64,000 bases of DNA from an uncultured virus (IMG/VR IMGVR_UViG_3300007542_000024). Lineage: Duplodnaviria > Heunggongvirae > Uroviricota > Caudoviricetes. The notes below the pieces were generated by a model. The model ran no database searches and was not told the DNA's origin. It saw only the letters and a program-made list of their open reading frames with translations. Each line of letters opens with the position of its first letter. The stretch's first letter is position 1. The stretch lies in the IMG/VR virus record IMGVR_UViG_3300007542_000024; one strand, given 5' to 3'. The translations under genes were made by a program, and so were the position numbers. Shown here in pieces: positions 12,545 through 29,206 of the stretch.

Positions 12545-12545
12545 G

Positions 12546-12914
12546 TCAGCCTCCGCTGGAAGCGATGTCCGGGAAGAACTCGGCGACGATCTCGTCGCGC
12601 CGAGCGTGCAGCTCCGACTTGACGAAGTCCACGCAGTCTTGAAGGGCCGCGCGCTTCTCTGGCTCGGTAATCCCGCAAGGGACCGTGCACCAGGCCGTGA
12701 CCTCGACCTTCTCTCGGGAGAACTCGGTCGAGGTGCCGATAGCGATGGAGATGCCGACGCTGGCAGGGTGCGGGGGGAGCGCCTTTCGCGGGTCGAGCGG
12801 AGGCGCCTCGGTCGGGCGAGCGATCTGGTGAGGAGGGGAGCCCGGGCGCCGGGCCGTGGCCACGGAGCCGCGCTTGCCCGAGTCGGGCGGGCGGCGGAAC
12901 GGAGAGTCACTCAT
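12546..12914 (-). CDS. Hypothetical protein
   Basis: 122-aa ORF with AAGGAG RBS, tightly packed. Confidence 0.65.
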   Translation of the reverse strand: MSDSPFRRPPDSGKRGSVATARRPGSPPHQIARPTEAPPLDPRKALPPHPASVGISIAIGTSTEFSREKVEVTAWCTVPCGITEPEKRAALQDCVDFVKSELHARRDEIVAEFFPDIASSGG

Positions 12915-13473: not shown

Positions 13474-13474
13474 G

Positions 13475-14185: not shown

Positions 14186-15540
14186 ACTGCGGGTCTCTCC
14201 TGAACAGCGTAGGGGTACTGGAAGCCGGCGAGGTGGTGCATGAGCTTGTTGCACATGTTTCGCGCGGATGGGATCAAGTTGTCGTAGATGACCACGACGA
14301 CAGGCGGCTTCTTCCCGGCGCATTTGCGCTGGATGCGCCCGATGATCTGGCGGAGGCGTCCTTCGTCTACGAAGGGCATGCAGATGAAGATGGTGTCGAG
14401 GTCCTTGCGGTCGAGACCTTCCTTGGCCAGCGGTGTCGTAGCGAAGACGAGGTCGTAGCTCTGCAGGATCTCTTCCCGGGCCTCTCCCTTCACGCCGCCG
14501 TAGATGAGCCCGTGTGGGGTGGGCCACTGGAAGGACGCCATGAACTTCAGGTGGTTGACCCGCTCCGAGAGCACGAGGGGCTTGCGCCCGTCCTGCACAG
14601 CGCCCCAGAGCATGTTGCAGATGATGTCGTTGCGCTCGGCGCAGTCGGCCAACCAGTTGTAGAGCTTGGCCAGGTTCGCCCCAGAGGACGTAGACATCGA
14701 CGCCAGGTCTTCCTTCGTAGGGTTGATGTCCGTCTTCACGAAGAAGACTTCCGGTACGATGTCTGCTTGCATGCTCTCGAACAGCACCCCGCCGATGTGC
14801 GCCATGTAGAGCCGGTCGAGGCCATCGGCCCGCAGCGGCGTCCCGGACAGTCCCCAACGAACACCTCCGCAGAGGGGAGCCGTCGTGTTGAACCAGGGCG
14901 CTCCCAGGTGGTGCACCTCGTCGTAGACCGCGATCCCGAAGTGGTTCCGCATCTCGACGGGGAGGTCATCGTACTTGGCTGCGAGGGTCTGAATCATGGC
15001 CAGGGTGACAGGCTTCTCCCAGTCCATGGTCGTCCCCTGGACGATGCCGATGTCCTCGCGCTCCAAGGATGCGTGCTCCGTCAGGCGAGTGATCCACTGG
15101 TAGAGCAGGTCCTTGGTATGAACGACCACGAGCGCAGGCATGCCGAGCGCGGCCATGGCGTGAATGGCGACGACCGTCTTGCCCTTGCCTGGCAGCAAGG
15201 CGAGCACACCGTCCCCCTCGTCCACCATCGAGGCGTAGCCCATGCGCTGAATGGGCCCGCGGAGATCGTAGGTCAGGGGGCCGATCTCCACCTGGGGGAA
15301 CCTCTTGGGCCGGATATCCACGATCTCGAAGTCGTACTGGTCCTCATCGCTGGGCGGGATGAATGCACGAGGCACCACGAGGTGCGTGCTGGTGGTTCCC
15401 CAGGCACACACAGGCGCCTTGTCGGAGAGCGGGAAGGTCAGGGAGGCTTGGATACCCGCTCGGTTGGGTACGTGCTCCAGGGGCAGCCAGAGGTAGTCCC
15501 CTCGGTAGCCCTTGCGCGGGTCCATGCGGCGGTACTTCAT
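14182..15540 (-). CDS. Superfamily 2 helicase (UvsW/XPB-like)
   Basis: PGKGKT, YDEVHH, GLSGTPLRADG, EGLD, QIIGRIQR. Confidence 0.9.
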   Translation of the reverse strand: MKYRRMDPRKGYRGDYLWLPLEHVPNRAGIQASLTFPLSDKAPVCAWGTTSTHLVVPRAFIPPSDEDQYDFEIVDIRPKRFPQVEIGPLTYDLRGPIQRMGYASMVDEGDGVLALLPGKGKTVVAIHAMAALGMPALVVVHTKDLLYQWITRLTEHASLEREDIGIVQGTTMDWEKPVTLAMIQTLAAKYDDLPVEMRNHFGIAVYDEVHHLGAPWFNTTAPLCGGVRWGLSGTPLRADGLDRLYMAHIGGVLFESMQADIVPEVFFVKTDINPTKEDLASMSTSSGANLAKLYNWLADCAERNDIICNMLWGAVQDGRKPLVLSERVNHLKFMASFQWPTPHGLIYGGVKGEAREEILQSYDLVFATTPLAKEGLDRKDLDTIFICMPFVDEGRLRQIIGRIQRKCAGKKPPVVVVIYDNLIPSARNMCNKLMHHLAGFQYPYAVQERPAV

Positions 15541-15938
15541 GGGCGACTCACTGCGGCGGTCAGCTTCTGCTCGAGGGCCTCCCGTAGCGCCTTGCGCTCC
15601 CGGGCGTCCAGCTGCAGGCGCAGGACGTTCTCGGCTTCGACGGCAGCCAGGGCTGCGATGTCTCTGAGCAGAACATCTGGGTGTGGAGAGAGGGTGACGT
15701 GGGCACGCACCTCGGGGTCGAGCTGGTGCTCGGCGAGGAGGCGCCAGGCGACCAAGCGCCTGTCGGGCGGAACCTCGAGGGCGTTGAGCAAGTACTCCAG
15801 CAGCTCCCCCGACGGGTAGGACGTTCCGAGGAAGATGCGGCGAATGTGCTCCGGGGACACGCCGACCCCGGCCGCTACTTCATGCTGGGCTATCCACGGG
15901 GCCTTGGCTGCCGCCAGTAGCTTCCCCAGGGTCGTCAT
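15537..15938 (-). CDS. XRE-family helix-turn-helix regulator (133 aa)
   Basis: QHEVAAGVGVSPEHIRRIFLGTSYPS; start 15938 is ATGA-coupled. Confidence 0.75.
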   Translation of the reverse strand: MTTLGKLLAAAKAPWIAQHEVAAGVGVSPEHIRRIFLGTSYPSGELLEYLLNALEVPPDRRLVAWRLLAEHQLDPEVRAHVTLSPHPDVLLRDIAALAAVEAENVLRLQLDARERKALREALEQKLTAAVSRP

Positions 15939-16396
15939 GACGTGCCCTGGTGGTACTTGGAGCCGAAGCGCCGACGTGTGAAGAAGTAGGCGACCTCGGC
16001 GGCGATCGCCTGCACCCCGGCTTCGACCATGCGTAGGCCGAGGTCCTTCATGATGTCCCAGAACGAGGGGCGTTTCCACTTGCGCACTTCCCCCGGCTTC
16101 TGGGCGGCGACGGGAGCGTAGGCGGAGGGGCGGTCACCGTCGGCTTGACGGGGCGGCGTGGCGGCCGGCGGCGGGGCGGGGGCGACGTTGGTGCGGACGG
16201 TAGGCTGGCGGAGGGTCTGGGTGGTAGTTCTCACGGGAGCCTGCACGGGTGCTGGTGTGGGAGCGGCGGGAGCAGCTCGCGGGGGACGAAAAGGACTGCT
16301 GGAGCTTCCCTGGAAGGAGAACTGCTCCTGCGGAGGGGGCTGCGCCGCCGTGTTACCCCGGCGGAGCTGCTGGTAGAGCCTGTCGTTCGGTGGCAA
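15935..16396 (-). CDS. Pro/Ala-rich hypothetical protein, first gene of the leftward operon
   Basis: AGGAGGAG then TTG 16396; low-complexity N-terminus, amphipathic C-terminus. Confidence 0.6.
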   Translation of the reverse strand: MPPNDRLYQQLRRGNTAAQPPPQEQFSFQGSSSSPFRPPRAAPAAPTPAPVQAPVRTTTQTLRQPTVRTNVAPAPPPAATPPRQADGDRPSAYAPVAAQKPGEVRKWKRPSFWDIMKDLGLRMVEAGVQAIAAEVAYFFTRRRFGSKYHQGTS

Positions 16397-16439
16397 CGGG
16401 GGCTCCTCCTGTGCTAATGGTGTTGATGCGACCAGTCTC

Positions 16440-16452
16440 CTTATGCGCGATA
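16440..16452 (-). promoter_or_regulatory. TC-N4-ATAAG motif heading the replication operon (candidate phage promoter)
   Basis: TATCGCGCATAAG at the divergence point between the replication and structural modules; one of nine similar copies. Confidence 0.65.
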
Positions 16453-16487
16453 TTCGGCATCCTGTGCCCCCAGCCGAGAGAGTACCC

Positions 16488-17585
16488 ATGGACCTTCGGA
16501 CCCAGGTGATCGACTTCTACGACGACCGAGAAGGTCGGATCCTCCAAGGCTTCGTTCCTGACCCCTCGGACCTCCCGCCGCTGGTCAAGACTGCTGCGGT
16601 CCTGGCGGAGAGCGCGCACAACAACCAGTACGCCTTGGTGATGAGCGATCAGCAGGGCACGCTGAGGCGTTTCCCCACCAACGACGTGGGGAACACCTGG
16701 TTGTCGGCGCTCTACTTCCACGCCACCCATGACGTGCTGCCGGAAGAGGCGGAGAAGGTCGCGGCGGCCAACCTCCTGCTCGCCTGCAATCACTTCCAGA
16801 TCGACCCCCCGCAGAGCTTGGTGGAGGCAGCCTCGAGGCACGACGGACCCCCCACGACCAACCTGGTCGACATCACGGGTCAGCGTCGCGAGATCGTCAA
16901 GGAGGCCGAGGCTCTTCCCGAGGACGACGTCGTCTACGCCCTCGAGGACGAGAAGCGGTACCCCCTGGCCAGCGCGCAGGACGCCCGCACCGCCATGACC
17001 TACCTGGACAGGCACCTGCGAGGCTTTGCCCCCGGCCAGCGTCGCGAGTTCGCCACCAAGGTCGCCAGTGTGGCCGAGCGTGCAGGGCTCCCAGTGGAGG
17101 GGGCGGTCGCGCAGTACGCGGGCAACGACTACTCCCCCGGGCTGCAGGGACACCTCACCGCCCGCGCCGCGTACCTGGTGGACATCGGGGCCACGCCCAA
17201 GGTGCGCGCCGAGTTGACCAAGGTCGCGGCCCAGCGCACCGCGCTCCCGCCCGACGAGTTCGCCGCGGCGCTGCAGACCTTCGATGAGAGCCACGGGCTG
17301 GACCGTCTGTGGGACCAGGGCATCGCGGATCCCTACTACTCCACCTTCGGGTGGACGGTGAAGACCGCTGCCGACAAGACGCGCTACGAGGCGGGCATCC
17401 TCTCCGTGTCCGAGGATGAGCTCCGCTCGCTGGCGGAGTACGGGCGCAAGGTGCTGGTCGAGCGCTTCGGAGAGAAGCTCGCCAACGCCTTCTGCAAGAA
17501 CCCGGTCGCCATCTTCACGTCCATGCCGCTCCCGCAGCGGCAGATCCTGGCCAACATGGCCTCCAGCGTCACCGACTTGCAGTAG
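16488..17585 (+). CDS. Putative head-associated structural protein (365 aa)
   Basis: First gene of the rightward module; K-x-A motifs VKTAA, VKEAE, TKVAA, VKTAA. Confidence 0.7.
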   Translation: MDLRTQVIDFYDDREGRILQGFVPDPSDLPPLVKTAAVLAESAHNNQYALVMSDQQGTLRRFPTNDVGNTWLSALYFHATHDVLPEEAEKVAAANLLLACNHFQIDPPQSLVEAASRHDGPPTTNLVDITGQRREIVKEAEALPEDDVVYALEDEKRYPLASAQDARTAMTYLDRHLRGFAPGQRREFATKVASVAERAGLPVEGAVAQYAGNDYSPGLQGHLTARAAYLVDIGATPKVRAELTKVAAQRTALPPDEFAAALQTFDESHGLDRLWDQGIADPYYSTFGWTVKTAADKTRYEAGILSVSEDELRSLAEYGRKVLVERFGEKLANAFCKNPVAIFTSMPLPQRQILANMASSVTDLQ

Positions 17586-17593
17586 GAGGGCAC

Positions 17594-18268
17594 GTGAAGC
17601 CCCTCTTCCAGCCCGCGAGACCGTTCGAGGACGGGATGGGGCTTCACGTGCAGCCCCTCACAACGCTGCTTCTGCAGTTGCTTGGTCCCGAGTACATCGA
17701 CTGGGACTCCGAGGCGCTCTTCCTCGAGCTGGAAGAGCGTGGAGGCGTCCCCGTGGGTGCGATGACGCAGGAGCGCATCCAGGCGGTGCGTCTGATGCAC
17801 CGGCAGCCCTCGTTCTGGCACGACTGGGGAGTGTTCGAGAACGTGACGGCGGCCATCCTCGGACACGGCGCGGTCTTCAGCCACGCTCAGCCCCCCGATG
17901 CGCACGAGATCGCGATCGCGTTGGACGTGGCGCGCGTCTTGGACGCCTCGCGTGCCTACTCGGCCGAGGTGCTGCAGTACATCGTCAGTGCGCTACTCTA
18001 CGACGGCGTGTGGTACCTCGAGGAGCCTCTCGACCTTGCACAGGCGACCTTGGCGGACCACGACAGCACCAAGGGTATCCTTCGGGACGTAGGTCAGGTG
18101 GCTGCCGTGCTACAGCGTGTTGGGAACCGCTACATCACGACGCCTTCGACAGCGGCCGAGGTGCAGGCCAACCACGTCATAGAGGTCAGGAAGGCACGAG
18201 CGGAGTACAATCAGCAGGTGCAGGCGCAGTTGCGCCAACTTCCGCAGATCCTCCAGGAGCTACGATGA
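17594..18268 (+). CDS. Hypothetical protein
   Basis: 224-aa ORF with AGGAGG RBS. Confidence 0.75.
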   Translation: MKPLFQPARPFEDGMGLHVQPLTTLLLQLLGPEYIDWDSEALFLELEERGGVPVGAMTQERIQAVRLMHRQPSFWHDWGVFENVTAAILGHGAVFSHAQPPDAHEIAIALDVARVLDASRAYSAEVLQYIVSALLYDGVWYLEEPLDLAQATLADHDSTKGILRDVGQVAAVLQRVGNRYITTPSTAAEVQANHVIEVRKARAEYNQQVQAQLRQLPQILQELR

Positions 18269-18636
18269 GCCAGTACGACACCGTCAGGGAACAGATCATC
18301 CTCATGGCGTTCGAGGAAGAGCTCGAGAAGATCGCCGCCGGCTGGTTCACCCCCATCAAGAAGGGGCTGAAGTCGGCGGGCCACCGCATCATCTCCAAGG
18401 CGGCGCCCACGGGCAGCGGGGCGGCTACCGCTGGCATCCGCGGCCTGCGGAAGGGCGTGAAGCAGGGCAAGCGTGGCTACTGGAAGGCCGGCAAGAAGGC
18501 CAGCTTCAAGACGCGGGCGCGGGTCTTCGGAGCCAACGCCATGAACTTCGCCGCGCGGAACCCCGGTACCGCTGCTGCGGGCGTCGGCCTGGGAGCGGTC
18601 GGTGCGGGTGCTGTGGGCGCCAAGGTCCTGAGCTAA
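18265..18636 (+). CDS. Basic protein with AFEEELEKIA leader and C-terminal glycine zipper (123 aa)
   Basis: ATG 18265 after AGGAG, ATGA-coupled; Lys-rich; ends AAAGVGLGAVGAGAVGAKVLS. Confidence 0.8.
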   Translation: MSQYDTVREQIILMAFEEELEKIAAGWFTPIKKGLKSAGHRIISKAAPTGSGAATAGIRGLRKGVKQGKRGYWKAGKKASFKTRARVFGANAMNFAARNPGTAAAGVGLGAVGAGAVGAKVLS

Positions 18637-18640
18637 GCCT

Positions 18641-20572
18641 ATGTCGGGTAGCGGCTTCGGTCCATCCTCCGGGTACCGCATGAGCGGCAGCAGCAGCTAC
18701 GCCTTCGGTTCACTGGATGGGAGGAACAACAGCTTCAAGTACCCCTCGGCCTGGTGGGATGCGGCTCACATGGAGCTGCCCACCACGGTCAAGCACCTCT
18801 TCAAGTGGTGCCGTTACCATGCCGTCGCCAACCCGCTCATCAGCTCGACGACCCGCAAGATGGCGTCGTACCCCATCACGCGGCTCATCATCGAAGACGA
18901 GCCCATGGAGGGGTTCGGCAAGAACAAGGAGCGCTGGGAGGACTTGCTCTTCCGGGTGCTGAACATCCAGCGGTTCATGTTCGAGGGTGGACTGGACTAC
19001 CACACCTACGGCAACTGCATCGTCAGCCTGCTCTACCCCTTCCACAAGTACCTCGGGTGCCGCTCTTGCGGCTTCCGCGAGCGCATCAAGCGGCTGAAGT
19101 ACCAGCAGGAGTGGACGTTCCGCAACTTCAGCTACGAGCTCAACTGCCCGAAGTGCGGCACCACGGCGCCGGCCGAGGTCAAGGATGAGTGGTACCTCTC
19201 TTACAGAGGCATCAAGATCATCCGCTGGGACCCCTCGTCGATCTCCATCGAGTTCAACCCCATCACCCAGGCATCCGAGTACGCCTACACGATCCCCGAG
19301 CGCATCCGGGCCAAGATCGTGAACAAGCACAAGCCCTACCTCGAGGAGATGCCGCACACCTTCATCCGGGCGGCGCGTCACCGGCGCCCTGTGCAGCTCG
19401 TGGCGGGCAACGTCTTCCACTTCCGAGCGCCGACACCCTCCGTCAGCGGGAACGACTCCGGTTGGGGCTACCCGCCCATCCTGCCTGCGCTCAAGGACAG
19501 CTTCTACCTGCAGGTGCTCAAGAAGGCGAACGAAGCCATCATGCTCGAGCACCTGGTCCCGCTGGACATCCTGTTCCCCAGCACGGCCGACGCCCACGCC
19601 AACCCCTACCTGCACGTCAACCTCTCCGACTGGAAGCGGCGCATCGAGACCGAGCTGGTCAAGTGGCGCATGGACCCCAACCACAAGCCGATCCTGCCGC
19701 TCCCCGTGGGGTACCAGCGTGTGGGCGGCACGGGGCGCAGCTTGATGCCTGTGCAGGAGATCCGAGCCTGGTCCGAGCACATCGTCGTGGGCATGGGGGT
19801 TCCTCAGGAGTTCGCCTTCGGGGGCTTGACCTGGTCAGGTTCGAGCGTCTCCATGCGCATGCTGGAGAACCACTTCCTGATGTACCGGGACATGCTGCAC
19901 CACTTCATCCAGCACTTCCTGATCCCGAGCGTCTCCCGGTTCATGAACTGGCAGCCAGTCTCGGCCCGGATGAAGTCCTTCAAGATGGCCGACGACATGC
20001 AGATGAAGCAGCTGCTGCTGTCGCTCAACCAGATGAAGAAGCTGTCGGACAAGAGCTTGTTGGCCGACTTCGACAAGGACTCCCTCGAGGAGCTGCGCCT
20101 CATCGAGCAGGAGCAGCGACGCGCGCACGATGTGCAGCGGCAGGACCAGCTGGCCCAGGCGGAGGCACAGGGCGAGTCCCAGCAGGTCGCCACCAAGTTC
20201 CAGATCCGCGCCGAGGAGATGATGCGGAAGCATCAGGAGAGCCTGCAGCGGGAGCAGACGCAGGTGATGGGGAGCCAGCCCCCGGCACCCGGGCAGGATC
20301 CCGCACTGGCAGCAGGCCAGCCCCAGGCTCCCGGTCGACCGCCTGCCCAGCAGCACGTCAGCAACGTCAACGTCATCGAGCTGGCCGATGCTTGGGCCAA
20401 GCGCCTGCTCGGCCTGGAGCAGCACGAGCAGTCCCGGGTCCTCCAGGACATGGCTCGCCAGAGCCCCTCCCTGCACAAGCTCATCCTGCAAAAGATGAGC
20501 GAGGTGAGGGCGGCGACGCAGGAGCCGCTGCCAGAGCAGAGGCCCCCACGTCGCCAGAACGCGGTGATCTGA
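18641..20572 (+). CDS. Portal protein (putative)
   Basis: 643 aa; LISSTTRKMASYPIT, DYHTYGNCIV, FHFR...GWGYPPI, IVVGMGVPQEFAFGG give a portal-like layout; Zn-ribbon insert (CRSC...CPKC); Gln-rich tail. Confidence 0.7.
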   Translation: MSGSGFGPSSGYRMSGSSSYAFGSLDGRNNSFKYPSAWWDAAHMELPTTVKHLFKWCRYHAVANPLISSTTRKMASYPITRLIIEDEPMEGFGKNKERWEDLLFRVLNIQRFMFEGGLDYHTYGNCIVSLLYPFHKYLGCRSCGFRERIKRLKYQQEWTFRNFSYELNCPKCGTTAPAEVKDEWYLSYRGIKIIRWDPSSISIEFNPITQASEYAYTIPERIRAKIVNKHKPYLEEMPHTFIRAARHRRPVQLVAGNVFHFRAPTPSVSGNDSGWGYPPILPALKDSFYLQVLKKANEAIMLEHLVPLDILFPSTADAHANPYLHVNLSDWKRRIETELVKWRMDPNHKPILPLPVGYQRVGGTGRSLMPVQEIRAWSEHIVVGMGVPQEFAFGGLTWSGSSVSMRMLENHFLMYRDMLHHFIQHFLIPSVSRFMNWQPVSARMKSFKMADDMQMKQLLLSLNQMKKLSDKSLLADFDKDSLEELRLIEQEQRRAHDVQRQDQLAQAEAQGESQQVATKFQIRAEEMMRKHQESLQREQTQVMGSQPPAPGQDPALAAGQPQAPGRPPAQQHVSNVNVIELADAWAKRLLGLEQHEQSRVLQDMARQSPSLHKLILQKMSEVRAATQEPLPEQRPPRRQNAVI

Positions 20573-20573
20573 G

Positions 20574-20642
20574 CTACGAGTCGCTGACGCCCAGGAGAGC
20601 TCCCCAGGCGATGGCGCAGGTACAGAAGGCGGTGAACAGCAT
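20574..20642 (-). CDS. Hydrophobic micro-peptide MLFTAFCTCAIAWGALLGVSDS (22 aa)
   Basis: TGATG-coupled to the acidic peptide; stop lies 1 nt from the portal stop. Confidence 0.45.
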   Translation of the reverse strand: MLFTAFCTCAIAWGALLGVSDS

Positions 20643-20770
20643 CAGTCGGTGTCCTCTTCGTCATCGACGTCGAAGTCAGGGTCGTCGTAGTCGTCTTCGT
20701 CGTCGTAGGGGTTCAGGCCGAACTCCAGGTCATCCCAGAGCTCATCAGTGTGGGTACGGGGACCGTGCAC
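20642..20770 (-). CDS. Highly acidic micro-protein (42 aa)
   Basis: GGAGGT RBS, GTG 20770: MHGPRTHTDELWDDLEFGLNPYDDEDDYDDPDFDVDDEEDTD; ATAAG motif 40 nt upstream. Confidence 0.65.
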   Translation of the reverse strand: MHGPRTHTDELWDDLEFGLNPYDDEDDYDDPDFDVDDEEDTD

Positions 20771-20809
20771 GCGGGTTACCTCCAAGTCGTGGTAGTTGGC
20801 GTCATAGTC

Positions 20810-20822
20810 CTTATGCGAGAAT
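20810..20822 (-). promoter_or_regulatory. TTC-N4-ATAAG motif
   Basis: ATTCTCGCATAAG, intergenic, pointing at the micro-peptide pair. Confidence 0.65.
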
Positions 20823-20847
20823 GTGAGCGCTTCCGTAGGAGCCCCTC

Positions 20848-23800
20848 ATGCCGTACCTGAGCCCTGACGAACAGTTCGCTGACCTCAAGAGCAAGGTCTC
20901 GTCCACCCTGATGGAGCTCTTCCCCGTGGAGGGGCGCGGCGGCCGCGTCGTCCTCAAGAACGTGGAGGTCGACGACAACCTCGACACGCATGACCTGCGC
21001 TCGCAGCGGGTAGCTCTGCAGGAGGGGAAGACCTGGGCGGTGCCCGTGTACGGGGATGCTGTGCTCGAGCGCGAGGGCCAGGAGATCGACCGCAAGCGCG
21101 TCCTGCTGATGCACCTGCCCAAGACCACGGACAGGTTCGGCTACATCGTCAAGGGGCGGGAGTACCAGGCGCTCACCCAGTTCCGGCAGAAGTCCGGCGT
21201 GTACCACCGCACGGCGAGCAACGGCGCGCTGTTGGCCGAGTTCAACCTGGCCAACAGGGACCAGTTCGCCAACGGGCGTACCTTCAAGGTGCGGTTCGAT
21301 CCCGAGGAGGCGGACTACTACCTGCAGCACGGCAACTCCAACATCCCGCTGTACCACCTGTTGAAGGGTGCCGGGGTCTCCGACCGGGAACTCGAGCAGC
21401 GCTGGGGAGCTGCCATCGTGCAGAAGAATCGAGAGCGGGCCTCGGCCGAGCAGGTCTACTCCCGCTTCTACAAGGCGGTGAACAAGAAGCAGCCCGCGGA
21501 TCCCATGAGGCACGCTGGGCTGTTCCGCGAGCTGCTCGGTAAGACCCGGCTGCGGGCGGACACGACCAAGAAGACGCTGGGCGCCGAGTTCGAGACTGTC
21601 GACAACGAGGTCCTTCTGCGCGCGACCGAGAACCTCCTCGACATGTCGAAGGGGCGCCGGGAGGATGACCCGAAGACTTCGCTGGAGTTCCAGTCCGTTC
21701 ACACCATCGACGACTTCATCGACGGCCGCTTGAAGCGCGCGGCGCCGAGCATTCGCCGGAAGCTGGCCAACGCTCTGGCCAGCGGGCGCACGCGCAACGT
21801 ACGCCGCGTGGTGAAGGCCGATCCGTTCGACCGGGCAGTGCAGGGCTACTTCACCTCTGACCTGACGGTGAACCCCGAGCAGACCAACCCCTTGGAGATG
21901 CTCGCCGGCCAGCTCAAGACCACCATCATGGGCGAGCAGGGAGGCTACAAGTCGGCGCACGTGGTGTCCGAGGAGTCCAAGCTCATCAGCCCGTCGCACC
22001 TCGGCTTCCTCGACCCCATCCACACCCCGGAGAGCGACAAGACGGGAGTGACCCTCTCGCTGCCGCTCGGTGTGAAGAAGGTCGGCAACGAGCTCGAGAC
22101 GCTGCTGGTGGACGCCCGGACGGGGAGGACGCGGCGCATGCAGCCCGCGGACGTGCTCGACCAGACGGTGGCCTTCCCCGATCAGTACGAGCGGAAGGGG
22201 AAGAAGCTGGTAGCCCGTCACGCCAAGGTCAAGGCTACTCGTGGTGGAGAGGTCGTCACGGTCCCTGCGAGCGAGGTCGACTACGTACTCCCCAGCCCAC
22301 GCAGCCTGTTCGGCGTAGCGTCCAACCTGGTGCCCTTCCTGCAGAACAACCAGGGCAACCGCGCCATGACCGCGGCCAAGCAGCAAGAACAGGCCGTGCC
22401 TCTGGAGCACCGGGAGGCTCCCCTGGTGCAGGTCGAGATGGACCGCGGGGGTACCTTCGAACAGGCTCTTGGCCTGTACGCCTCTCGCCGGGCCCCCGTA
22501 GCCGGGGTCGTCAAGACGGTGAAGAAGGACGCGGTGATCATCAACGACGGGGACAAGGACCACGAGGTCCAGATCTACCGCAACTTCCCGCTGAACGGGA
22601 CCTCCCTCTACGACATGGACGTCCAGGTCAAGAAGGGTGACCAGGTCGAGAAGGGGCAGCTCCTCGCGGACTCCACCTTCACCAAGGACGGGACGCTGGC
22701 GCTCGGAACCAACCTGCGGACCGCCTACATCCCCTTCATGGGGTACAACTTCGAGGACGGCATCGTCATCTCGGAGGCCGCTGCGAGGAAGCTGGCGTCG
22801 CGCCACCTCTACAAGAAGTCCACAGCGCGGGATGCCGACACGATCCTCAGCCGGAAGACCTTCCTGGCAGAGTACCCCTACGTCTTCGGCAAGGGGCAGC
22901 TGAGCGGTGTGGGGGAGGACGGCATCGTGAAGCCCGGCACCATCCTCAACGAGGGTGACCCGCTCATCATGGTGCTGCGGAAGCCCCCCATGACCAAGGC
23001 ACGCAAGCAGATCCGGGAGTTCCGCCGAGGGCGGCCTGACAAGTACCGGGACCGCTCCGTCGTGTGGGACAAGCCCTACCAGGGCGAGGTCACCGAGGTC
23101 GTGCGCAAGGGCAAGGACGTCACGGTCTACGTCAAGACCCGAGAGCCCGCCCAGATCGGCGACAAGGTCGTCGGGCGGCACGGCAACAAGGGCGTCATCA
23201 CGCGCATCATCCCGGTGTCCGAGATGCCCTGGAAGGAGGGAGAGAACGGCGAGAAGGAGCACGTCGAGATCGCGCTGAACCCCCTGGGCGTGCCCGGGCG
23301 CATCAACCTCGGGCAGATCCTGGAGACCGCGGCGGGTAAGGTGGCCGAGAAGCGCGGGAAGCCCTACGGCGTGCGCAACTTCGAGGCCGAGAAGGACTAC
23401 CTGGCGATGGTCAAGGAGGACCTGGCCGCCGAGGGTCTGCAGGACCGCGACGAGCTCATCGACCCTCGGACGGGGAAGCCCTTCCCCAACCGCATCCTGG
23501 CGGGCAACCAGTACATCGTCAAGCTGAAGCACCAGGTGGGCAAGAAGGTCTCTGCCCGTGCCGGCGGTCCCGGCGCGCCCTACGACATCAACCACGCGCC
23601 GGCCGGGGGCGCTCCCCACGGGGGGCAGGCTCTGGGGGAGCTCGGGATGTACTCCATGCTGGCGCACGGAGCCCGGGAGAACCTCCACGAGATGTTCGCC
23701 TACAAGTCGTCCCGCAACCACGAGCTGTGGGATGCCCTGCGAGAAGGGACGCCGCTACCGCCCCCGAAGGTGCCCTTCGCCTACGAGAAGTTCCTCTCCT

Positions 23801-26800
23801 ACCTGAACGCCATGCGCGTCGACGCACGGAAGCACGGGAACAGCCTGACCTTGGTCCCGTTCACCGAGGAGCAGGTGAAGTCGATGTCGGCCGGGGAGCT
23901 CAAGGACCCCGGGCTGGTGGTGCGCGGCAAGGACTTGCGTCCGCTCAAGGGCGGGCTGTTCGACGAGGACATCACGGGCGGCATGCTCGGGGACAAGTGG
24001 GCACACTTCAAGCTCGCCGAGCCCATGCCGAACCCGCTCTTCGAGGACGCGGTCAAGAAGCTCCTCAACATCACCCGCAAGCGCTACGCGGACATCGTCG
24101 CGGGACGGGTGGAGGTCAAGGGCAAGCGGGGCGGGGAGGCCATCAAGGCCCTGCTGGAGGACGTCAACGTCGCGGAGCAGCGGGAAGCCATCACTGCGAA
24201 GCTCGCGACTGCGAAGGGAGCCACGCGGAGCAAGCTGCACAAGCAGCTGCGCATCCTCAAGGCCCTGGAGGCCAACAACCTCGACCCCACGGTCTACATG
24301 ATGGAGTCCGTGCCCGTCGTCCCGCCGATCATGCGCCCCGTAACGGTCAAGGACGACGGCTCCCTCTCGTCCAACGACTTGAACTACCTCTACAAGGGCA
24401 TCGCGGCCTCCAACGACGTGCTCCGGAGCAACAAGCGGGCAGGCCTGCCCGCAGCCCACATGGAGACGGTGCGCTCCGAGCTGTACGATGGCGTCAAGGC
24501 CCTGATGGGTGTCGGCGCCGCGGCTGCGCCGGGCCCGCGCGACTACCAGGGAGTGCTCAAGATCATCTCGGGGGATCAGCCCAAGGAGGGCTACTTCCAG
24601 AAGCGCGTGATGAAGCGCCGCCAGGACTTCTCGGCCCGGTCCATCATCATCCCGGAGCCGGGCATGGACCTCGACGAGCTCGGGGTGCCCGAGAAGGTGG
24701 CCTGGTCGCTGTACCAGCCCTTCATCGAGCGCGACCTTGCCCGGGCGGGCTGGAAGATGCTCGACGCCATCAACGAGGTCAAGGCCCGCGGTCCCGCGGC
24801 CGAGAAGGCGTTGGAGCGTGCGGTGCAGGAGCGCCCCATCCTGCTGAAGCGCGACCCCGCTCTGCACATGTTCAACGTGATGGCCTTCAAGCCCAGGTTG
24901 GTGAAGGGCAGCGCCATCGAAATCCATCCCCTCGTCGTCTCGGGCTACAACGCTGACTTCGACGGCGACGCCATGAGCGTGTACCTGCCCCTCACCTCGA
25001 AGGCGGTGAAGGAAGCGCATGGCATGTACCCGTCCAAGAACTTGTTCAGCTCGAGCACGGGCGCCGTGATGCACACGCCCGGGCACGAAGCGTTGCTCGG
25101 CCTCTACCTGGCGTCGAAGCCCGGGAAGCGCACGCGGCACACGTTCAAGACGGGAGAAGACGCGCGGGCGGCCTGGCGTCGGGGACGTATCGACCGGACG
25201 GACATCATCCACGTGGCTGGGCACGAGACTACGGTGGGCCGGCTGGACATCGAGCGGCACCTGCCGCCGGAGCTGCGGGAGACCGGGAAGAAGCCTGTCT
25301 CCCAGATGCGGGTCTACGACAAGGGGACCACCAAGAAGGTGCTGACGGCCATCGCCAAGAAGAACCCTGACCACTACGGCAAGGTGGCCAACGCCTTCAA
25401 GGACATCGGCAACGAGCACACCTTCGACGTAGGGTTCTCCATCGGCCTCGACGACTTCGAGGTCATCAACCGGAAGGAGCGGGACTCCATGATGCAGGCG
25501 GCCGAGGCCCAGGCGGACCGCATCCGGCAGGGTCCCGGGAGCAAGCAGCGGAAGGACGAGCGGGTCGTCAAGATCTTCCAGGACCTCGATGACTCCCTCG
25601 ACCGCCTCAACACCGAGCACCTGGCCCAGAACCCCACCAACATCTCCCGCATGGTGGAGTCCGGGGCGCGCGGCAAGCCCTCGCAGCTCAAGCAGATCAT
25701 CAGCAGTCCCGTGTTGGTGATGGACGCGAAGAACCGGGTGGTGCCGAGCCTCATCCCGCGGTCGTACTCCGAGGGCATGGACGTGGCGTCCTACTGGACC
25801 ACGCTGCACGGTGCGCGGAAGGGCACCATCCAGAAGGTGCAGGGCGTGAAGGACCCCGGGTACATCTCCAAGCAGGTGATGAACTCCACCATGAACCAGC
25901 TCGTCACGGAGCGAGACTGCGGGACGACCGAGGGCATCTTCATGTCCGTCGATGACTCGGACATCCTGGACAGGTACACGGTGCAGGGGACGCTCATCAC
26001 GCCGAAGGTGGTGGCTGATGCGCGGAAGCGCCGACAGCGCTCCCTCAAGGTGAGGTCCCCCCTGCGGTGCAAGTCGTCGCACGGCATCTGCCAGAAGTGC
26101 ATGGGGCTGAGCGTGAACGGACACCACCACGATGTGGGGACCAACGTGGGGGTGCTCGCTGGGCAGGCCATCGGAGAGCCCGCGACGCAGCTCTCCCTCA
26201 ACGTCTTCCACACGGGAGGCTTGGCCAAGGGGCGCGGCTCGAAGAGCGTCAACGCCTTCCACCGGCTCACCGAAATCTTGCGGCTCCCCAAGAACCTGCC
26301 GGACGCAGCGCCGCTGGCCCTGGAGTCGGGGACGGTCACCAAGGTCGAGCGCGCGCCGCAGGGCGGCGAGTACGTGACCGTCGGCCGGACGCGCCACTAC
26401 CTCCCGGCGGCTCAGGCCAGGGCGGTGAAGCGCGGGCAGCCTGTGCGCAAGGGCGCTCCGCTGACGGATGGCGTGGTGGACCCGCGCAACCTGCTGTCCC
26501 TGCGGGGCCTCGAGGCTGTGCAAGACCACCTCACCGACGAGCTCGCCGGCGTCATGGGTACGGTGGCTCCGGTGAAGCGACGCAACCTCGAGGTCGTCGT
26601 CAAGTCGCTCACGAACGTCACGCACATCGACGATGCGGGAGACCATCCGGAGTGGGTTCCGGGCGATGCGCAGCCCTACAGTGCCGTGCAGGCGTACAAC
26701 CGGAAGCCCGGCACGAAGCCGGTCAAGCATACGCCCTACCTCAAGGGAGTCAACGTCCTGCCCCACGAGATGCAGGAAGACTGGATGGCGCGCCTGAACT

Positions 26801-26958
26801 ACACCGACCTCTCGCGCACGCTGACCGAGGCGGCCCGCGAGGGCTGGCGGTCCAACATCCACGGCTTCCATCCGGTACCCGGGGCGGCCTACGCTGCCGA
26901 GTTCGGGCAGAAGCAGAAGGCCGTCAAGCCCGGTGAGCCCTGGAGAGGTGAGTATTGA
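20848..26958 (+). CDS. Phage DNA-directed RNA polymerase, fused beta-beta' (RpoB/RpoC-like) polypeptide, 2036 aa
   Basis: beta motifs FLDPIHTPE, LVPFLQNNQGNRA, GYNFEDGIVISE, GDKVVGRHGNKG, LNPLGVPGRINLGQ; beta' motifs VPPIMRP, RQDFSARSII, LKRDPALH, catalytic YNADFDGD (~24949-24969), SGARG, QAIGEPATQLSLNVFHTGG. Confidence 0.97.
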   Translation: MPYLSPDEQFADLKSKVSSTLMELFPVEGRGGRVVLKNVEVDDNLDTHDLRSQRVALQEGKTWAVPVYGDAVLEREGQEIDRKRVLLMHLPKTTDRFGYIVKGREYQALTQFRQKSGVYHRTASNGALLAEFNLANRDQFANGRTFKVRFDPEEADYYLQHGNSNIPLYHLLKGAGVSDRELEQRWGAAIVQKNRERASAEQVYSRFYKAVNKKQPADPMRHAGLFRELLGKTRLRADTTKKTLGAEFETVDNEVLLRATENLLDMSKGRREDDPKTSLEFQSVHTIDDFIDGRLKRAAPSIRRKLANALASGRTRNVRRVVKADPFDRAVQGYFTSDLTVNPEQTNPLEMLAGQLKTTIMGEQGGYKSAHVVSEESKLISPSHLGFLDPIHTPESDKTGVTLSLPLGVKKVGNELETLLVDARTGRTRRMQPADVLDQTVAFPDQYERKGKKLVARHAKVKATRGGEVVTVPASEVDYVLPSPRSLFGVASNLVPFLQNNQGNRAMTAAKQQEQAVPLEHREAPLVQVEMDRGGTFEQALGLYASRRAPVAGVVKTVKKDAVIINDGDKDHEVQIYRNFPLNGTSLYDMDVQVKKGDQVEKGQLLADSTFTKDGTLALGTNLRTAYIPFMGYNFEDGIVISEAAARKLASRHLYKKSTARDADTILSRKTFLAEYPYVFGKGQLSGVGEDGIVKPGTILNEGDPLIMVLRKPPMTKARKQIREFRRGRPDKYRDRSVVWDKPYQGEVTEVVRKGKDVTVYVKTREPAQIGDKVVGRHGNKGVITRIIPVSEMPWKEGENGEKEHVEIALNPLGVPGRINLGQILETAAGKVAEKRGKPYGVRNFEAEKDYLAMVKEDLAAEGLQDRDELIDPRTGKPFPNRILAGNQYIVKLKHQVGKKVSARAGGPGAPYDINHAPAGGAPHGGQALGELGMYSMLAHGARENLHEMFAYKSSRNHELWDALREGTPLPPPKVPFAYEKFLSYLNAMRVDARKHGNSLTLVPFTEEQVKSMSAGELKDPGLVVRGKDLRPLKGGLFDEDITGGMLGDKWAHFKLAEPMPNPLFEDAVKKLLNITRKRYADIVAGRVEVKGKRGGEAIKALLEDVNVAEQREAITAKLATAKGATRSKLHKQLRILKALEANNLDPTVYMMESVPVVPPIMRPVTVKDDGSLSSNDLNYLYKGIAASNDVLRSNKRAGLPAAHMETVRSELYDGVKALMGVGAAAAPGPRDYQGVLKIISGDQPKEGYFQKRVMKRRQDFSARSIIIPEPGMDLDELGVPEKVAWSLYQPFIERDLARAGWKMLDAINEVKARGPAAEKALERAVQERPILLKRDPALHMFNVMAFKPRLVKGSAIEIHPLVVSGYNADFDGDAMSVYLPLTSKAVKEAHGMYPSKNLFSSSTGAVMHTPGHEALLGLYLASKPGKRTRHTFKTGEDARAAWRRGRIDRTDIIHVAGHETTVGRLDIERHLPPELRETGKKPVSQMRVYDKGTTKKVLTAIAKKNPDHYGKVANAFKDIGNEHTFDVGFSIGLDDFEVINRKERDSMMQAAEAQADRIRQGPGSKQRKDERVVKIFQDLDDSLDRLNTEHLAQNPTNISRMVESGARGKPSQLKQIISSPVLVMDAKNRVVPSLIPRSYSEGMDVASYWTTLHGARKGTIQKVQGVKDPGYISKQVMNSTMNQLVTERDCGTTEGIFMSVDDSDILDRYTVQGTLITPKVVADARKRRQRSLKVRSPLRCKSSHGICQKCMGLSVNGHHHDVGTNVGVLAGQAIGEPATQLSLNVFHTGGLAKGRGSKSVNAFHRLTEILRLPKNLPDAAPLALESGTVTKVERAPQGGEYVTVGRTRHYLPAAQARAVKRGQPVRKGAPLTDGVVDPRNLLSLRGLEAVQDHLTDELAGVMGTVAPVKRRNLEVVVKSLTNVTHIDDAGDHPEWVPGDAQPYSAVQAYNRKPGTKPVKHTPYLKGVNVLPHEMQEDWMARLNYTDLSRTLTEAAREGWRSNIHGFHPVPGAAYAAEFGQKQKAVKPGEPWRGEY

Positions 26959-28529
26959 GTGCCCCCAAGCCCGGGTTCCCGCCTGCCTGGACCGCCTACG
27001 GCGGTGTGAGGGTACTGGCGGGCACCATCATCTCGGTCAACAAGGTGAAGTGGACCTGCACGGTCAACTGCGGGAAGGGAGAGCACTACGAGGACGTCCC
27101 CGTGATGCCCGGGTTCGTGGGGGCCGAAGGGCAGGGCGAGTTCAAGATGCCGGAGACCAACTCTCCGGTCTGGGTCTGCAAGCCTTCGCAGGAGGGGAAG
27201 GTGTTCGTGCTGGGCGGCGCCGCGCTCCCTACCCAGATGGACGAAGGGGACGCCTACGAGGATCCCACGGACTACCGCATGAACCGTCCGGTGCTCGGCG
27301 AGGGGGACCAGGGGATGATGGGCCCTGGCGGGAGTCCGCACGTCATCCTGCGCAAGGGCGGCATGCTCGAGCTCGGTGCCGACCAGGCATGCCGCTCCTG
27401 GTACTTCCCGCTCAAGGGACTGCTGCAGCACTTCTGTCAGCGGTACGAGCTCTACGGTGCGGCCGGGTCCTGGGAGTATGGCGCGCGCCTCGAGGACCAG
27501 TCACACGGGACGGCGCGGACTCCGGTCGAGTTCAACCTGCAGCTCAAGGAGTTCGCCCAGGACGACCCCATCATCCAGCTGGGCCTAGGGCGCATCGCTG
27601 ACGAGGATGACCAGCGACTGTTCCACGGCACTACGGGCGACATCGTCGCCCGGCTCATCATCAACAACCGCTACCGCTTCTGGGTGGACAAGGCCGGCAA
27701 CGTGCAGTCCTACGTGCACGGAGGCGTGGTGCGGTCCCACAACGGCCCCGTCGTGGAGTACTACCACTCTACGCTGATGCGCGAGGTCAAGGAGCTGTTC
27801 CGCCAGCGTCTCGGGAAGCGCGCCGTGGAGGTTAGCGGGAACGATGCCCTCGAGGTCACGGGAGACCGCACAGTCCGCGTGGGCGGAAACGTCTCCGAGG
27901 AAGTCACCGGCACAGTAGCCCGTCAGCTCGGCGGGGTCGCCGACGAGGTCCGCGGGAGTGTGGAGCGGAAGGTGCAGGGAAGCCTCTCCGACGAAGTGGG
28001 CGGGTCCGTCTCACAGTCGGTAGGGGGCACGCACGAGATGTCGGTGCAGGGGGGAGCATCCGAGCTGGTGGGGGGCAAGAAGGTCACCAAGGTCCTCAAC
28101 AGCCAGGCCGACGGCAACGGCTACGAGATCTACGTCTACTCGGGCAAGCTCGAGATCCACGATGCGCTGGGCAACGTGGAGTTGTCGTCGGGCGGAGGGT
28201 CCGACCCTGCGGCAGCTCTTGCGCGAGTCACGATCACGCCTGCTGGAGCCATCCAACTGAGCAGCTCCGGAGGCCTGGCTACCGTCGAGGTCAACAGCAG
28301 CGGCATCCAGATCAGCACCGCGGGCGGGATCATCGAGCTCGACCAGGCCGGCTTGGTGCTTCTCGGAGGGGCAGTGCCCCCGCGGGGCGCCGTGGTCACC
28401 ACCCAGACGCACCCGGTGGACCTCGTGACAGGCACGCCGATCCTCGGGAGTGCCACTGTGGCGGCCGGCGGGATCGCGTCCCCCGCCGCGGTACCGGCTA
28501 CCAGCTTCGCCTCGGCCTTCCTGGTATGA
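26955..28529 (+). CDS. Baseplate central spike (gp5/GpV-like)
   Basis: N-terminal OB-fold-like region followed by 8-residue V-x-G repeats (VSGNDALEVTGDRTVRVGGNVSEEVTG...VQGSLSDEVGGSVSQSVGG). Confidence 0.75.
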   Translation: MSAPKPGFPPAWTAYGGVRVLAGTIISVNKVKWTCTVNCGKGEHYEDVPVMPGFVGAEGQGEFKMPETNSPVWVCKPSQEGKVFVLGGAALPTQMDEGDAYEDPTDYRMNRPVLGEGDQGMMGPGGSPHVILRKGGMLELGADQACRSWYFPLKGLLQHFCQRYELYGAAGSWEYGARLEDQSHGTARTPVEFNLQLKEFAQDDPIIQLGLGRIADEDDQRLFHGTTGDIVARLIINNRYRFWVDKAGNVQSYVHGGVVRSHNGPVVEYYHSTLMREVKELFRQRLGKRAVEVSGNDALEVTGDRTVRVGGNVSEEVTGTVARQLGGVADEVRGSVERKVQGSLSDEVGGSVSQSVGGTHEMSVQGGASELVGGKKVTKVLNSQADGNGYEIYVYSGKLEIHDALGNVELSSGGGSDPAAALARVTITPAGAIQLSSSGGLATVEVNSSGIQISTAGGIIELDQAGLVLLGGAVPPRGAVVTTQTHPVDLVTGTPILGSATVAAGGIASPAAVPATSFASAFLV

Positions 28530-29206
28530 GCCTGAGCGCTCCCGCGATCGCTGCCCTGGTCTTCCGAGACCACTTGGCGCAGTTCCCGCTCGCGGCGGAC
28601 GCCTGTCGCGAGAACGCTGCCACCGGGGTAGCGCTCCATTGTGTGCCCGAGGCCTTCATCGAGGCGCTGTGCGCTGGGCTGGTGACCGCGGTGCAGCAGG
28701 TGCGTGTTCGCGGGGTGCTCACCGGCATCGCCATCCCCCCGGCAACGGCTTCCCCCGTCCCCTACACCCTGACGACCGTTCCCGCTGCGGCTTCCCAGTT
28801 CCTCGCGGCGCAGGGATGGACGGGTTCTGGCGCTGCGGGGGCAGTCGCTACCTTCATCACGTCCGTACTGACGCACCTGGTGGCGACGTCCTGGCTTCAG
28901 CTCGCTCCCAGCAAGGTAGCGGGTACCGGGACCGCCCTTGTCTCCCTCGCATCGAACCCCACGCTGCAGGCCGAGCTGGAGACCCTGCTGCAAGGGACCC
29001 TCCCTGCAGCGTTCACTGCAGCAGGGGTCTTCGGGGAAGGCGATGTCCCGGGTGCCCCCGTCAATGCTACTCTGGCAGCGCAGCTGCCCAACTACGCCGC
29101 GGCCTACTCCATGGCGTTCGCCGGGATCGTGGCTTCGGTTCCCTACGTCGGCGGCACCGGCACCTCGGTCTTGGTTACAGAGCCCGTATCGGGCAGCATC
29201 TTGTAG
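28526..29206 (+). CDS. Ala-rich hypothetical protein, likely baseplate-associated
   Basis: 226 aa, ATGA-coupled to the spike gene. Confidence 0.65.
   Translation: MSLSAPAIAALVFRDHLAQFPLAADACRENAATGVALHCVPEAFIEALCAGLVTAVQQVRVRGVLTGIAIPPATASPVPYTLTTVPAAASQFLAAQGWTGSGAAGAVATFITSVLTHLVATSWLQLAPSKVAGTGTALVSLASNPTLQAELETLLQGTLPAAFTAAGVFGEGDVPGAPVNATLAAQLPNYAAAYSMAFAGIVASVPYVGGTGTSVLVTEPVSGSIL

Follow-up and report, generated by a model that had tools for sequence, protein, structure and literature searches.

The 64,000-nucleotide stretch analysed here (the window), which corresponds to bases 41433-105432 of the 110,689-bp linear IMG/VR virus record IMGVR_UViG_3300007542_000024 from an uncultured tailed phage, encodes a bacterial-type RNA polymerase (RNAP) in which the β and β′ subunits are fused into a single chain (20848..26958, plus strand). 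We found that this polymerase is typical of a very large group of contractile-tailed phages, most of them uncultured, with genomes of roughly 170-210 kb. By analogy with a cultured relative, the Salmonella phage Arash, the phage probably carries the fused polymerase and its own sigma factor within the virus particle. The tailed-phage origin of the polymerase is borne out by the terminase, major head protein, sheath-like protein, portal and spike genes on the same contig.

A stripped-down RNA polymerase encoded by one gene

The polymerase open reading frame (ORF) runs without interruption over 2036 amino acids (aa) from an ATG start with an AGGAG-like ribosome site 8 nt upstream, and its codon-position GC content (GC3 0.92, GC2 0.41) shows the pattern of a genuine gene in 65% GC sequence. 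ORFs of about 1000 aa lying antisense to it were rejected as genes, being GC-rich shadows. The Pfam domains Rpb2_3, Rpb2_6 and Rpb2_7 are located in the N-terminal part at aa 344-955 (Rpb2_6 E 1.6e-59), followed by Rpb1_1, Rpb1_2, Rpb1_4 and Rpb1_5 in the C-terminal part at aa 1052-1814, and solved bacterial β′ chains are matched with an E of 1e-109. All polymerase features given below are on the plus strand.

The anatomy of the chain was mapped with profiles of 54 family members per half (A7 for β and A6 for β′), which were compared with the Salmonella β and β′ subunits. The β (RpoB-like) module (20848..23838; aa 1-997) aligned to Salmonella β in hhalign with a probability of 100 (A7, E 6e-78), spanning residues 38 to about 1341 (of 1342), while the β′ (RpoC-like) module (23839..26955; aa 998-2036) was delimited by HMMER against solved structures and by profile alignment. 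The two Salmonella subunits sum to 2749 aa (1342 + 1407), compared with 2036 aa for the phage chain. Salmonella β residues 1-37, 220-301, 319-357, 935-1038, 1128-1143 and 1146-1183 have no counterpart in the phage β half; apart from 1-37, we take these blocks to be gammaproteobacterial lineage-specific inserts, and the absence of blocks of this kind accounts for most of the size difference. Similarly, Salmonella β′ residues 1-17, 66-97 and 154-176, several blocks within 947-1190 and some short stretches lack a phage counterpart, and 947-1190 is, we assume, the region of the trigger-loop insert. In the opposite direction, the profile alignments revealed no phage-specific insert of at least 12 aa relative to Salmonella in either half; therefore, there is no extra domain able to act as a built-in promoter reader, and the promoter-recognition domain envisaged in a first-pass annotation of this stretch finds no place in the chain.

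The catalytic NADFDGD motif is intact (24949..24969; aa 1368-1374), with DFDGD present in all 54 family members and the complete NADFDGD in 49 of them. The bridge-helix region (25771..25908; aa 1642-1687) aligned by hhalign to Salmonella β′ 765-810, and the rudder region is retained in the β′ half. The first helix of the trigger loop (GEPATQLSLNVFHTGG; 26146..26241) was also aligned, and the large insert after this helix is absent; hhalign left the second helix of the trigger loop unaligned, and its position was assigned by eye alone. At the level of the predicted protein, these comparisons show a stripped-down bacterial-type core with an intact active site and without an added domain. They also bear out the first-pass annotation in several respects: it had described an uninterrupted ORF with RpoB motifs followed by RpoC motifs, an intact NADFDGD and trigger loop, and a size well below the approximately 2750 aa of the E. 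coli subunits.

The counterpart of cluster I in the rifampicin-pocket region (21847..21954) is heavily substituted. Among 15 positions that we take to be rifampicin-resistance positions, 11 are changed, eight of these being Q513V, F514N, D516E, S522E, H526G, R529K, S531T and L533M and the further three V146L, I572T and R687E; L511, T563, P564 and S574 are unchanged. From these substitutions we infer that the phage polymerase would be naturally insensitive to rifampicin.

A fixed junction, a lost zinc site and cysteine depletion

HMMER and profile alignments showed that the β C-terminus is joined directly to the β′ N-terminus at 23773..23904. The strings quoted in the first-pass annotation, which had put the junction near 23760-23900, were found in their expected places (PFAYEKFLSYLNAMRV at aa 976, nt 23773; LTLVPFTEEQ at aa 1000, nt 23845; GGLFDEDITGG at aa 1035; NADFDGD at aa 1368, nt 24949), and the alignments join the β end to the β′ start at this site. 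In HMMER against solved structures, aa 1004-1046 align to Thermus β′ residues 12-53, and the β′ half begins at Salmonella β′ residue 18, immediately past the β end. Since β runs to about residue 1341 and β′ starts right after it, the two subunits are joined head to tail. Moreover, the spacing between F982 of β and P1004 of β′ is 21-22 residues in all 54 family members, indicating a fixed junction and no loose linker.

The β′ N-terminal zinc-binding domain has been lost (site at 23950..24033; aa 1035-1062). The 32 residues of Salmonella β′ 66-97 (CxC...CxxC) are replaced by a few residues in the phage chain, and none of the 54 family members has a cysteine in this segment, which extends to the family the absence of zinc-finger cysteines already pointed out for this protein. 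The second zinc site (25918..26100) is present, and its residues Cys1691, Cys1741, Cys1748 and Cys1751 are the sole four cysteines of the whole 2036-aa protein; they are retained in 51, 51, 51 and 50 of the 54 members, respectively. The β part of the family has a median of 0 cysteines (54 members). Cysteine makes up 0.20% of the polymerase versus 0.97% of the remaining predicted proteins of the contig, and the fused β′ parts have a median of 0.38% (n=22) versus 0.98% in bacterial β′ (n=33). We hypothesize that the loss of the zinc finger and the depletion of cysteines may ease passage of the protein through the phage tail.

A large family with a conserved gene order

In a word-indexed search that scored 7997 candidates, 1275 proteins reached E≤1e-10. 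The best 120 of these 1275 all carry Rpb2 and Rpb1 Pfam domains and come from contigs of up to 199 kb; most are 2031-2102 aa long, while others are longer (to 2907 aa, several of them bearing intein or homing-endonuclease domains) and one has 1762 aa. An exhaustive search of 1.84 billion representatives (50%-identity level) with the β′ half as query gave 13,735 matches at E≤0.001, the best 150 of which (E≤5e-186) are of fused length, intein-bearing (to 4739 aa) or fragments. In IMG/VR, relatives were recovered with an alignment query, a single-protein query giving only an identical fragment: of 717 stretches with the pattern, 696 code for a relative, and all 70 loci that were kept have one stop-free frame across the whole match.

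The polymerase gene lies, as the first-pass annotation had it, between a portal gene and a baseplate spike gene, and this arrangement is conserved across the family. The portal gene (18641..20572, plus strand), located immediately upstream, matches the portal gp204 of Arash in tblastn (28.9% identity, E 1e-70) and also the portal of Bacillus phage G. The gp5-like spike/hub gene downstream (26955..28529, plus strand), whose first listed start (TTG) overlaps the polymerase stop by 4 nt, matches PHROG 430 (baseplate hub and tail lysozyme; E 1.6e-9) and has Gp5_C and Gp5_trimer_C Pfam matches below threshold. A portal homologue is found upstream on the same strand in 60 of the 70 loci, the ten loci without it having at most 5.2 kb of upstream flank, and a spike homologue is found downstream on the same strand in 55. 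The portal-polymerase-spike order is thus kept though family members are down to about 40% identical. In addition, five complete family genomes (175-210 kb; CheckV 100%, terminal repeats in three) each contain a single gene of this polymerase, and the same enzyme therefore probably serves the whole infection cycle, perhaps with further sigma factors.

Many family polymerases are 2390-4739 aa long and contain LAGLIDADG, Hom_end or intein-splicing Pfam domains, examples being P0025, P0068, P0083, P0090, P0092, P0108, P0117 and P0118 as well as the loci L022, L023, L048 and L073. In the relative G005, the Rpb2_6 match is broken in frame by about 1 kb. Judged by these domains, the long forms look like polymerases with inteins within them.

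A sigma-70-family gene co-inherited with the polymerase

A Pfam scan of 105 ORFs across the whole contig revealed a sigma-70-family ORF of 241 aa on the polymerase contig, outside the window (G000:C1:13219-13941, = L005:13219-13941, plus strand). Taken alone, it shows sub-threshold Pfam matches to regions 3 and 4, the single-sequence scores being below the curated cut-offs. Full-length homologues with 34-43% identity are present in all five complete family genomes, and a profile of the six sequences matched solved sigma-70-family factors over regions 2-4 (E 1.9e-15), with all 60 listed matches being sigma factors. Across the six members, Pfam detects region 3 in five, region 4 in four and region 2 in two, and the ORF also matches PHROG 351 (sigma factor; E 1.9e-10). 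The protein is orthologous to gp10 of Arash (hhalign probability 99.8, E 2e-30; tblastn E 1.6e-21); the second Arash sigma factor, gp196, was ruled out as its orthologue (probability 21). Among 50,697 phage records, homologues of this sigma factor are confined to Arash, the Vibrio phages D69, D148 and D181 and one faecal fragment.

The polymerase has kept the docking sites for sigma regions 2 and 4. The β flap-tip region, the docking site of sigma region 4 (22981..23052; aa 712-735), aligned by hhalign to Salmonella β 889-920, and the β′ clamp helices, the docking site of sigma region 2 (24130..24342; aa 1095-1165), are conserved in the family consensus and align to B. subtilis β′ at about 165-232 and Thermus β′ 449-520. 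The first-pass annotation had recognised no α, ω or sigma gene in the window, and the scan of the 105 contig ORFs likewise gave no such match inside it; its further suggestion of a possibly sigma-independent enzyme is not supported, in view of the sigma gene on the contig and in the five relatives together with these docking sites.

No counterpart of the remaining bacterial subunits was detected by Pfam in the five complete genomes: RNA_pol_L was found in none, RNA_pol_A_bac in none above the cut-off (with one weak match, E 0.009) and ω in none, the α/ω search controls being positive in 14 of 14 genomes. A T7-like polymerase was also found in none of the five, in a search whose control matched nowhere either.

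One complete relative (L090, G004:C1:8204-11344, match G004:C1:9704-9844) has a second ORF of 193 aa with a sigma-70 region 4 match above the cut-off (E 1e-12), which is distinct from the conserved sigma factor; hence, some members carry more than one sigma factor, like Arash. Also outside the window, the contig encodes an SNF2-family helicase (G000:C1:6372-8144, = L005:6372-8144, plus strand; Pfam SNF2-rel_dom E 7e-18). This protein is homologous to Arash gp217 (30% identity, E 3.7e-48), has a homologue in three of the five complete relatives and shows a weak NCBIfam RapA match (E 1e-6); it may be a RapA-like accessory partner of the polymerase. Arash gp217 is abundant in particles, with 1148 spectra (PMC10585845).

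The phage polymerases are separated from the bacterial enzymes

A scan of 185,579 species genomes gave 600 pattern matches, 599 of them bacterial rpoC stretches. The best 80 of these 599 are 26-32% identical to the β′ half, with no phylum prominent; therefore, the gene is not a recent capture of any such bacterial β′. NCBIfam models gave a consistent picture, as rpoC_TIGR scored 496.5 (cut-off 963.5), the rpoB models TIGR02013 and NF001616 scored 333.3 (cut-off 801) and 364.8 (cut-off 896), and the fused-rpoBC models NF007172 and NF011417 scored 521 (cut-off 5372 bits) and 454 (cut-off 4632).

Phylogenetic trees were built for both halves. In the β′ tree (59 x 1159; LG+G4, short search, Shimodaira-Hasegawa-like approximate likelihood ratio test (SH-aLRT)), the bacteria fall on one side (33 rows, support 100), the fused family and Arash/D69 form a clade (100) and the fused family alone (22 rows) is supported at 90. 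The β tree (51 x 1048; LG+G4, short search, SH-aLRT) likewise places the bacteria on one side (26 rows, 100), with the Arash/D69 pair supported at 100 and the fused family alone (22 rows) at 89. A β′ subset tree (32 x 781; LG+C20+F+G4) gave the same arrangement, with the bacteria on one side (20 rows, 100), the fused family plus Arash/D69 at 100 and the fused family alone (10 rows) at 79. Forcing the phage clade together with Pseudomonadota, a grouping picked after seeing the tree, costs 95.6 log-likelihood units (approximately unbiased (AU) test, p-AU 1.4e-8). These trees are unrooted, come from short searches, have long phage branches and do not include archaeal, eukaryotic or mReC sequences (see below). 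Within them, the protein does not nest in a bacterial phylum, an outcome that the first-pass annotation had named beforehand as evidence against its reading. The RecA encoded by the same contig, which is 59-63% identical to bacterial RecA, provides a contrast, illustrating how a probably captured gene looks here.

Cultured relatives and the Arash virion proteome

Only four of the 50,697 phage records cover at least 80% of the polymerase. The Vibrio phages D181, D148 and D69 show 29.6% identity over 97% of its length, and Arash shows 33.5% identity over aa 12-1461 plus a second matching place. In Arash, the portal gene (gp204) is followed by a small gene (gp205) and by gp206, a protein of 1525 aa comprising β and the first half of β′; the remainder of β′ is encoded by gp216, which is separated from gp206 by about 4.8 kb with nine genes on the opposite strand. 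The arrangement in D69 is the same except that the gap is shorter, and its gp261 holds the fused junction. In D181 and D148, the polymerase match spans a homing endonuclease; in the cultured relatives overall, the rest of β′ lies 0.6-4.8 kb downstream, beyond inserted genes or homing endonucleases. The layouts of Arash gp206 and D69 gp261 indicate that the junction is fused there too and that β′ carries a secondary break. The window phage, Arash and D69 also have in common the synteny of portal, small ORF and RNAP. Thus, these phages are the closest cultured homologues of the polymerase, sharing with it a clade of 100% support, the adjacency to the portal, the fused β-β′ junction and an orthologous sigma factor; they differ in that their β′ is cut after about aa 1461, whereas the window gene is uninterrupted.

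The protein content of Arash particles purified on a sucrose gradient has been reported (PMC10585845). In these data, gp206 is the most-detected protein, with 100% coverage, 128 unique peptides and 3516 spectra, while gp216 is represented by 40 unique peptides and 1210 spectra and the sigma factor gp10 by 100% coverage, 24 unique peptides and 467 spectra; for comparison, the portal gp204 gave 877 spectra and the major capsid protein 1333 (PMC10585845). The portions of that paper available to us label the two pieces 'beta' and 'beta′' and mention neither that the subunits are fused nor that a zinc finger is missing, nor do they refer to the metagenomic family (PMC10585845). The first-pass annotation had suggested late expression and virion packaging from the position of the gene; the packaging part gains indirect support, by analogy, from the conserved gene order and from the presence of gp206 in Arash particles.

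Comparison with known polymerase systems

The first-pass annotation had also drawn a parallel to the multisubunit-RNAP-encoding Caudovirales (mReC) of Weinheimer and Aylward 2020 (PMC7481178). The parallel holds in kind, as these are metagenomic tailed phages with compact bacterial-like β/β′, which branch apart from their cellular homologues (PMC7481178); the fused family, for its part, stands apart from the 33, 26 and 20 bacterial rows of the three trees. It does not extend to the fusion: in the 21 'Metagenomic phage' rows of the material accessible to us, β (900-1383 aa) and β′ (887-1367 aa) have separate identifiers in every row, none is of about 2050 aa and several contigs carry two sets (PMC7481178). 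The main text, as available, uses 'fused' once and 'fusion' once, both on crAssphage (PMC7481178). The separate subunits in these rows indicate that the fused family is similar in kind to mReC and not described there as fused.

Compared with bacterial rpoB/rpoC, the phage chain has the same domain order, NADFDGD, bridge helix and trigger loop; it differs in scoring below the equivalog cut-offs and in being without the β′ N-terminal zinc domain. Cellular fused rpoBC proteins (NF007172 and NF011417, presumably the Helicobacter and Wolbachia types) resemble it in the head-to-tail β-β′ order in one chain, a fusion that is possible because the β C-terminus and the β′ N-terminus are close in the core enzyme. 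They are, in contrast, full bacterial cores of about 2840-2890 aa, whereas the phage chain lies outside the bacteria in the trees. Cellular fused rpoBC proteins assemble with α and ω.

The polymerases of the phiKZ/AR9 type are also phage β/β′ relatives without α or ω, one set of which is delivered by the particle. According to the accessible part of a 2026 review, they consist of four or five polypeptides, each genome encodes two such sets, and specificity is conferred by non-sigma or sigma-like subunits, in contrast to the one gene, one chain and recognisable sigma-70-family factor of the window family. In PHROG, phiKZ-type families match the polymerase at E 1e-24 or worse, and two unnamed families at 1e-83 and 1e-113. 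The N4-like, crAss-like and P23-45 tape-measure-fused polymerases embody the same concept of a huge single-chain, particle-borne enzyme that starts infection, although they are of unrelated or extremely divergent sequence as far as the accessible text goes (PMC7481178), whereas the window enzyme is by sequence an ordinary bacterial-type core. A different lineage with a phage-owned sigma factor and core is represented by the cultured Cobetia phage Carin-5 (L083), in which an annotated sigma factor gene lies directly upstream of separate β′ and β genes, both annotated 'beta'; its long-branch position in the trees enters none of the conclusions drawn here.

Proposed mechanism and alternative explanations

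As a whole explanation, we favour, with moderate confidence, a phage-owned, bacterial-type single β-β′ chain that is partnered by the phage sigma factor, packaged and delivered. The β-β′ chain would bind the phage sigma factor as a holoenzyme and initiate at phage-specific promoters. It would be made late, alongside the structural proteins, and together with the sigma factor and perhaps the SNF2-type ATPase be packaged and enter the cell along with the phage DNA. In that case, early transcription would be independent of the host polymerase and rifampicin-resistant, and newly made enzyme would carry out the remaining transcription. Least certain is the step in which the covalent fusion may take over the part of the α dimer in assembly, no α being encoded by the phage.

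A broader reading that joins these elements is tentative, and we think it on the whole doubtful. In that reading, the simplest known bacterial-type transcription machine, one chain plus one sigma factor, α-less and ω-less, would be injected as a ready holoenzyme, with the fusion standing in for the α scaffold, the loss of zinc and cysteines allowing unfolding through the tail, and a rifampicin-insensitive start of transcription. An SNF2-type ATPase might be injected with the holoenzyme, giving a counterpart of the poxvirus-particle transcription kit, and the enzyme would be among the commonest phage-owned polymerases on Earth, judged by metagenome sequence diversity.

Several points weigh against the packaged, sigma-partnered enzyme that we favour. 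The contig is about 65% complete (CheckV), and scans of the window found no phage promoter motif that would define an early or late programme. The flap-tip stretch is only moderately conserved within the family (54 members), the putative binding of the sigma factor to the polymerase is deduced from the conserved docking sites and co-occurrence, and the placement outside the bacteria may partly reflect fast evolution. A very divergent phage α or ω analogue may escape the Pfam models, and host α could serve. Packaging is supported by one proteome, that of a 33%-identical relative, and would extend by analogy to the window phage and the fully fused members. That preparation yielded 116 'virion' proteins including ribonucleotide reductases and kinases, and the Arash authors consider in their own paper that abundant proteins may have been carried over (PMC10585845).

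These last points favour a non-virion enzyme that would transcribe middle and late genes only, with the host polymerase reading the early genes and the detection in Arash being carry-over; a late-operon gene, moreover, yields its protein too late for early action unless the protein is packaged. We regard this as rather unlikely, since no other protein of the Arash particles, not even the major capsid protein, has as many spectra as gp206, and the sigma factor is present as well (PMC10585845), and since the position between portal and spike is stable down to about 40% identity and each genome has a single polymerase gene; zinc-finger loss and cysteine depletion throughout the family would also fit tail passage. 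A stronger contender, although we still hold it to be less than probable, is a hybrid enzyme in which the β-β′ chain needs the host α dimer, and perhaps ω, while the phage sigma factor sets promoter choice. The bacterial-type core and the lack of α and ω genes in the five complete genomes, against positive controls in all 14, speak for it, and Helicobacter-type β-β′ fusions and engineered E. coli fusions still assemble with α. Reliance on host α, however, fits poorly with a packaged enzyme unless α is packaged too, and other phage multisubunit polymerases function without α (2026 review, accessible part).

The two remaining explanations concern the nature of the enzyme itself. With no sigma gene in the window and a very compact chain, one might think of a self-sufficient minimal polymerase that recognises promoters by itself, without sigma or α; we consider this very unlikely, because the absence of any insert of at least 12 aa relative to Salmonella leaves no room for a recognition domain, while a sigma-70-family gene is conserved with the polymerase and both docking sites are kept. 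The idea that the phage recently acquired a bacterial rpoB-rpoC operon or a cellular fused rpoBC gene deserves almost no credence. It would explain the bacterial rpoB-rpoC domain order and the fact that the best NCBIfam match is the cellular fused model NF007172, but this match falls far short of its cut-off (521 against 5372 bits) and every rpoB or rpoC model also stays below its own. Further against capture, the identity to the best 80 of the 599 bacterial loci is 26-32%, all three trees separate the bacteria by a 100% branch, grouping with Pseudomonadota (chosen after the tree) was rejected, and RecA, the contig's captured gene by all appearances, is 59-63% identical to its bacterial relatives.

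Other features of the contig

The minus-strand block at 1-16000 of the window contains the replication genes, encoding a PD-(D/E)XK exonuclease, a resolvase, RecA and a family A DNA polymerase, and further a primase, a DnaB-like helicase, a protein with a uracil-DNA-glycosylase (UDG) domain and a helicase; the plus strand carries the portal, polymerase, spike, large terminase, major head protein and sheath-like protein genes. The exonuclease ORF (2163-3479, minus strand) is Cas4-like (PHROG 1706, E 1e-30). The RecA ORF (4059-5123, minus strand) is of bacterial type (Pfam E 6.5e-123), and the organism names among its best 120 matches are all alphaproteobacterial or 'Pseudomonadota', which suggests that it is a captured gene and that the host is alphaproteobacterial. 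The ORF with the UDG superfamily domain (13478-14857, minus strand; E 1.5e-20) has a long N-terminal extension that overlaps the helicase ORF (14185-15540), so translation probably starts further downstream. A 47-aa ORF located between the portal and polymerase genes (20642-20785, minus strand) is very acidic (D/E-rich) with high GC3; the closest relative, L016, has a similar 43-aa fragment of 40% D/E at the corresponding place and in the same orientation, and other relatives are less clear. This ORF could encode a small DNA-mimic-like protein, or be due to chance.

From portal to spike, terminator-like sites were absent from the plus strand in a simple scan. Consensus scans of 16000-29000 gave one promoter-like site (0.7 expected) and five terminator-like sites (5.2 expected), and 7-mer enrichment across 34 upstream regions produced two weak words only. 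The word AGCTGAC is not enriched in the window (15 matches, 13 expected). Some of its copies fall in GTCAGCTGAC palindromes, which occur in hairpin-like sequence at 43710-43738 and 49187-49196, where they closely precede the major head protein gene and the gene at 49215, respectively; these palindromes may be terminators or regulatory sites.

Novelty and significance

Phage multisubunit-type polymerases, virion polymerases, cellular β-β′ fusions and the Arash virion proteomics are already known. What is new is the very large fused family with its fixed junction and family-wide loss of the zinc finger and of cysteines, together with a co-inherited sigma factor of its own and a single-gene, α-less gene set. 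In the literature searched, we found no published description of a fused β-β′ phage family, although one may exist elsewhere. As far as the accessible part of a review goes, phage-owned multisubunit polymerases are known mainly from phiKZ-/AR9-like jumbo phages, where they are split and have no true sigma factor, and phage sigma factors are usually read as redirecting the host enzyme. Here, core and sigma factor are both phage-owned, and the single-chain core, though its family is very diverse, aligns easily to solved bacterial enzymes.

Since Arash and the Vibrio D phages are cultured, they open these questions to direct testing. If the chain works with the sigma factor alone, it would answer what the α dimer is needed for and would provide a sigma-dependent expression system that is minimal, orthogonal and probably insensitive to rifampicin. 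Should injection take place, the fused polymerase would represent a third independent 'bring your own polymerase' solution among phages, beside the N4-/crAss-type and the phiKZ-type.

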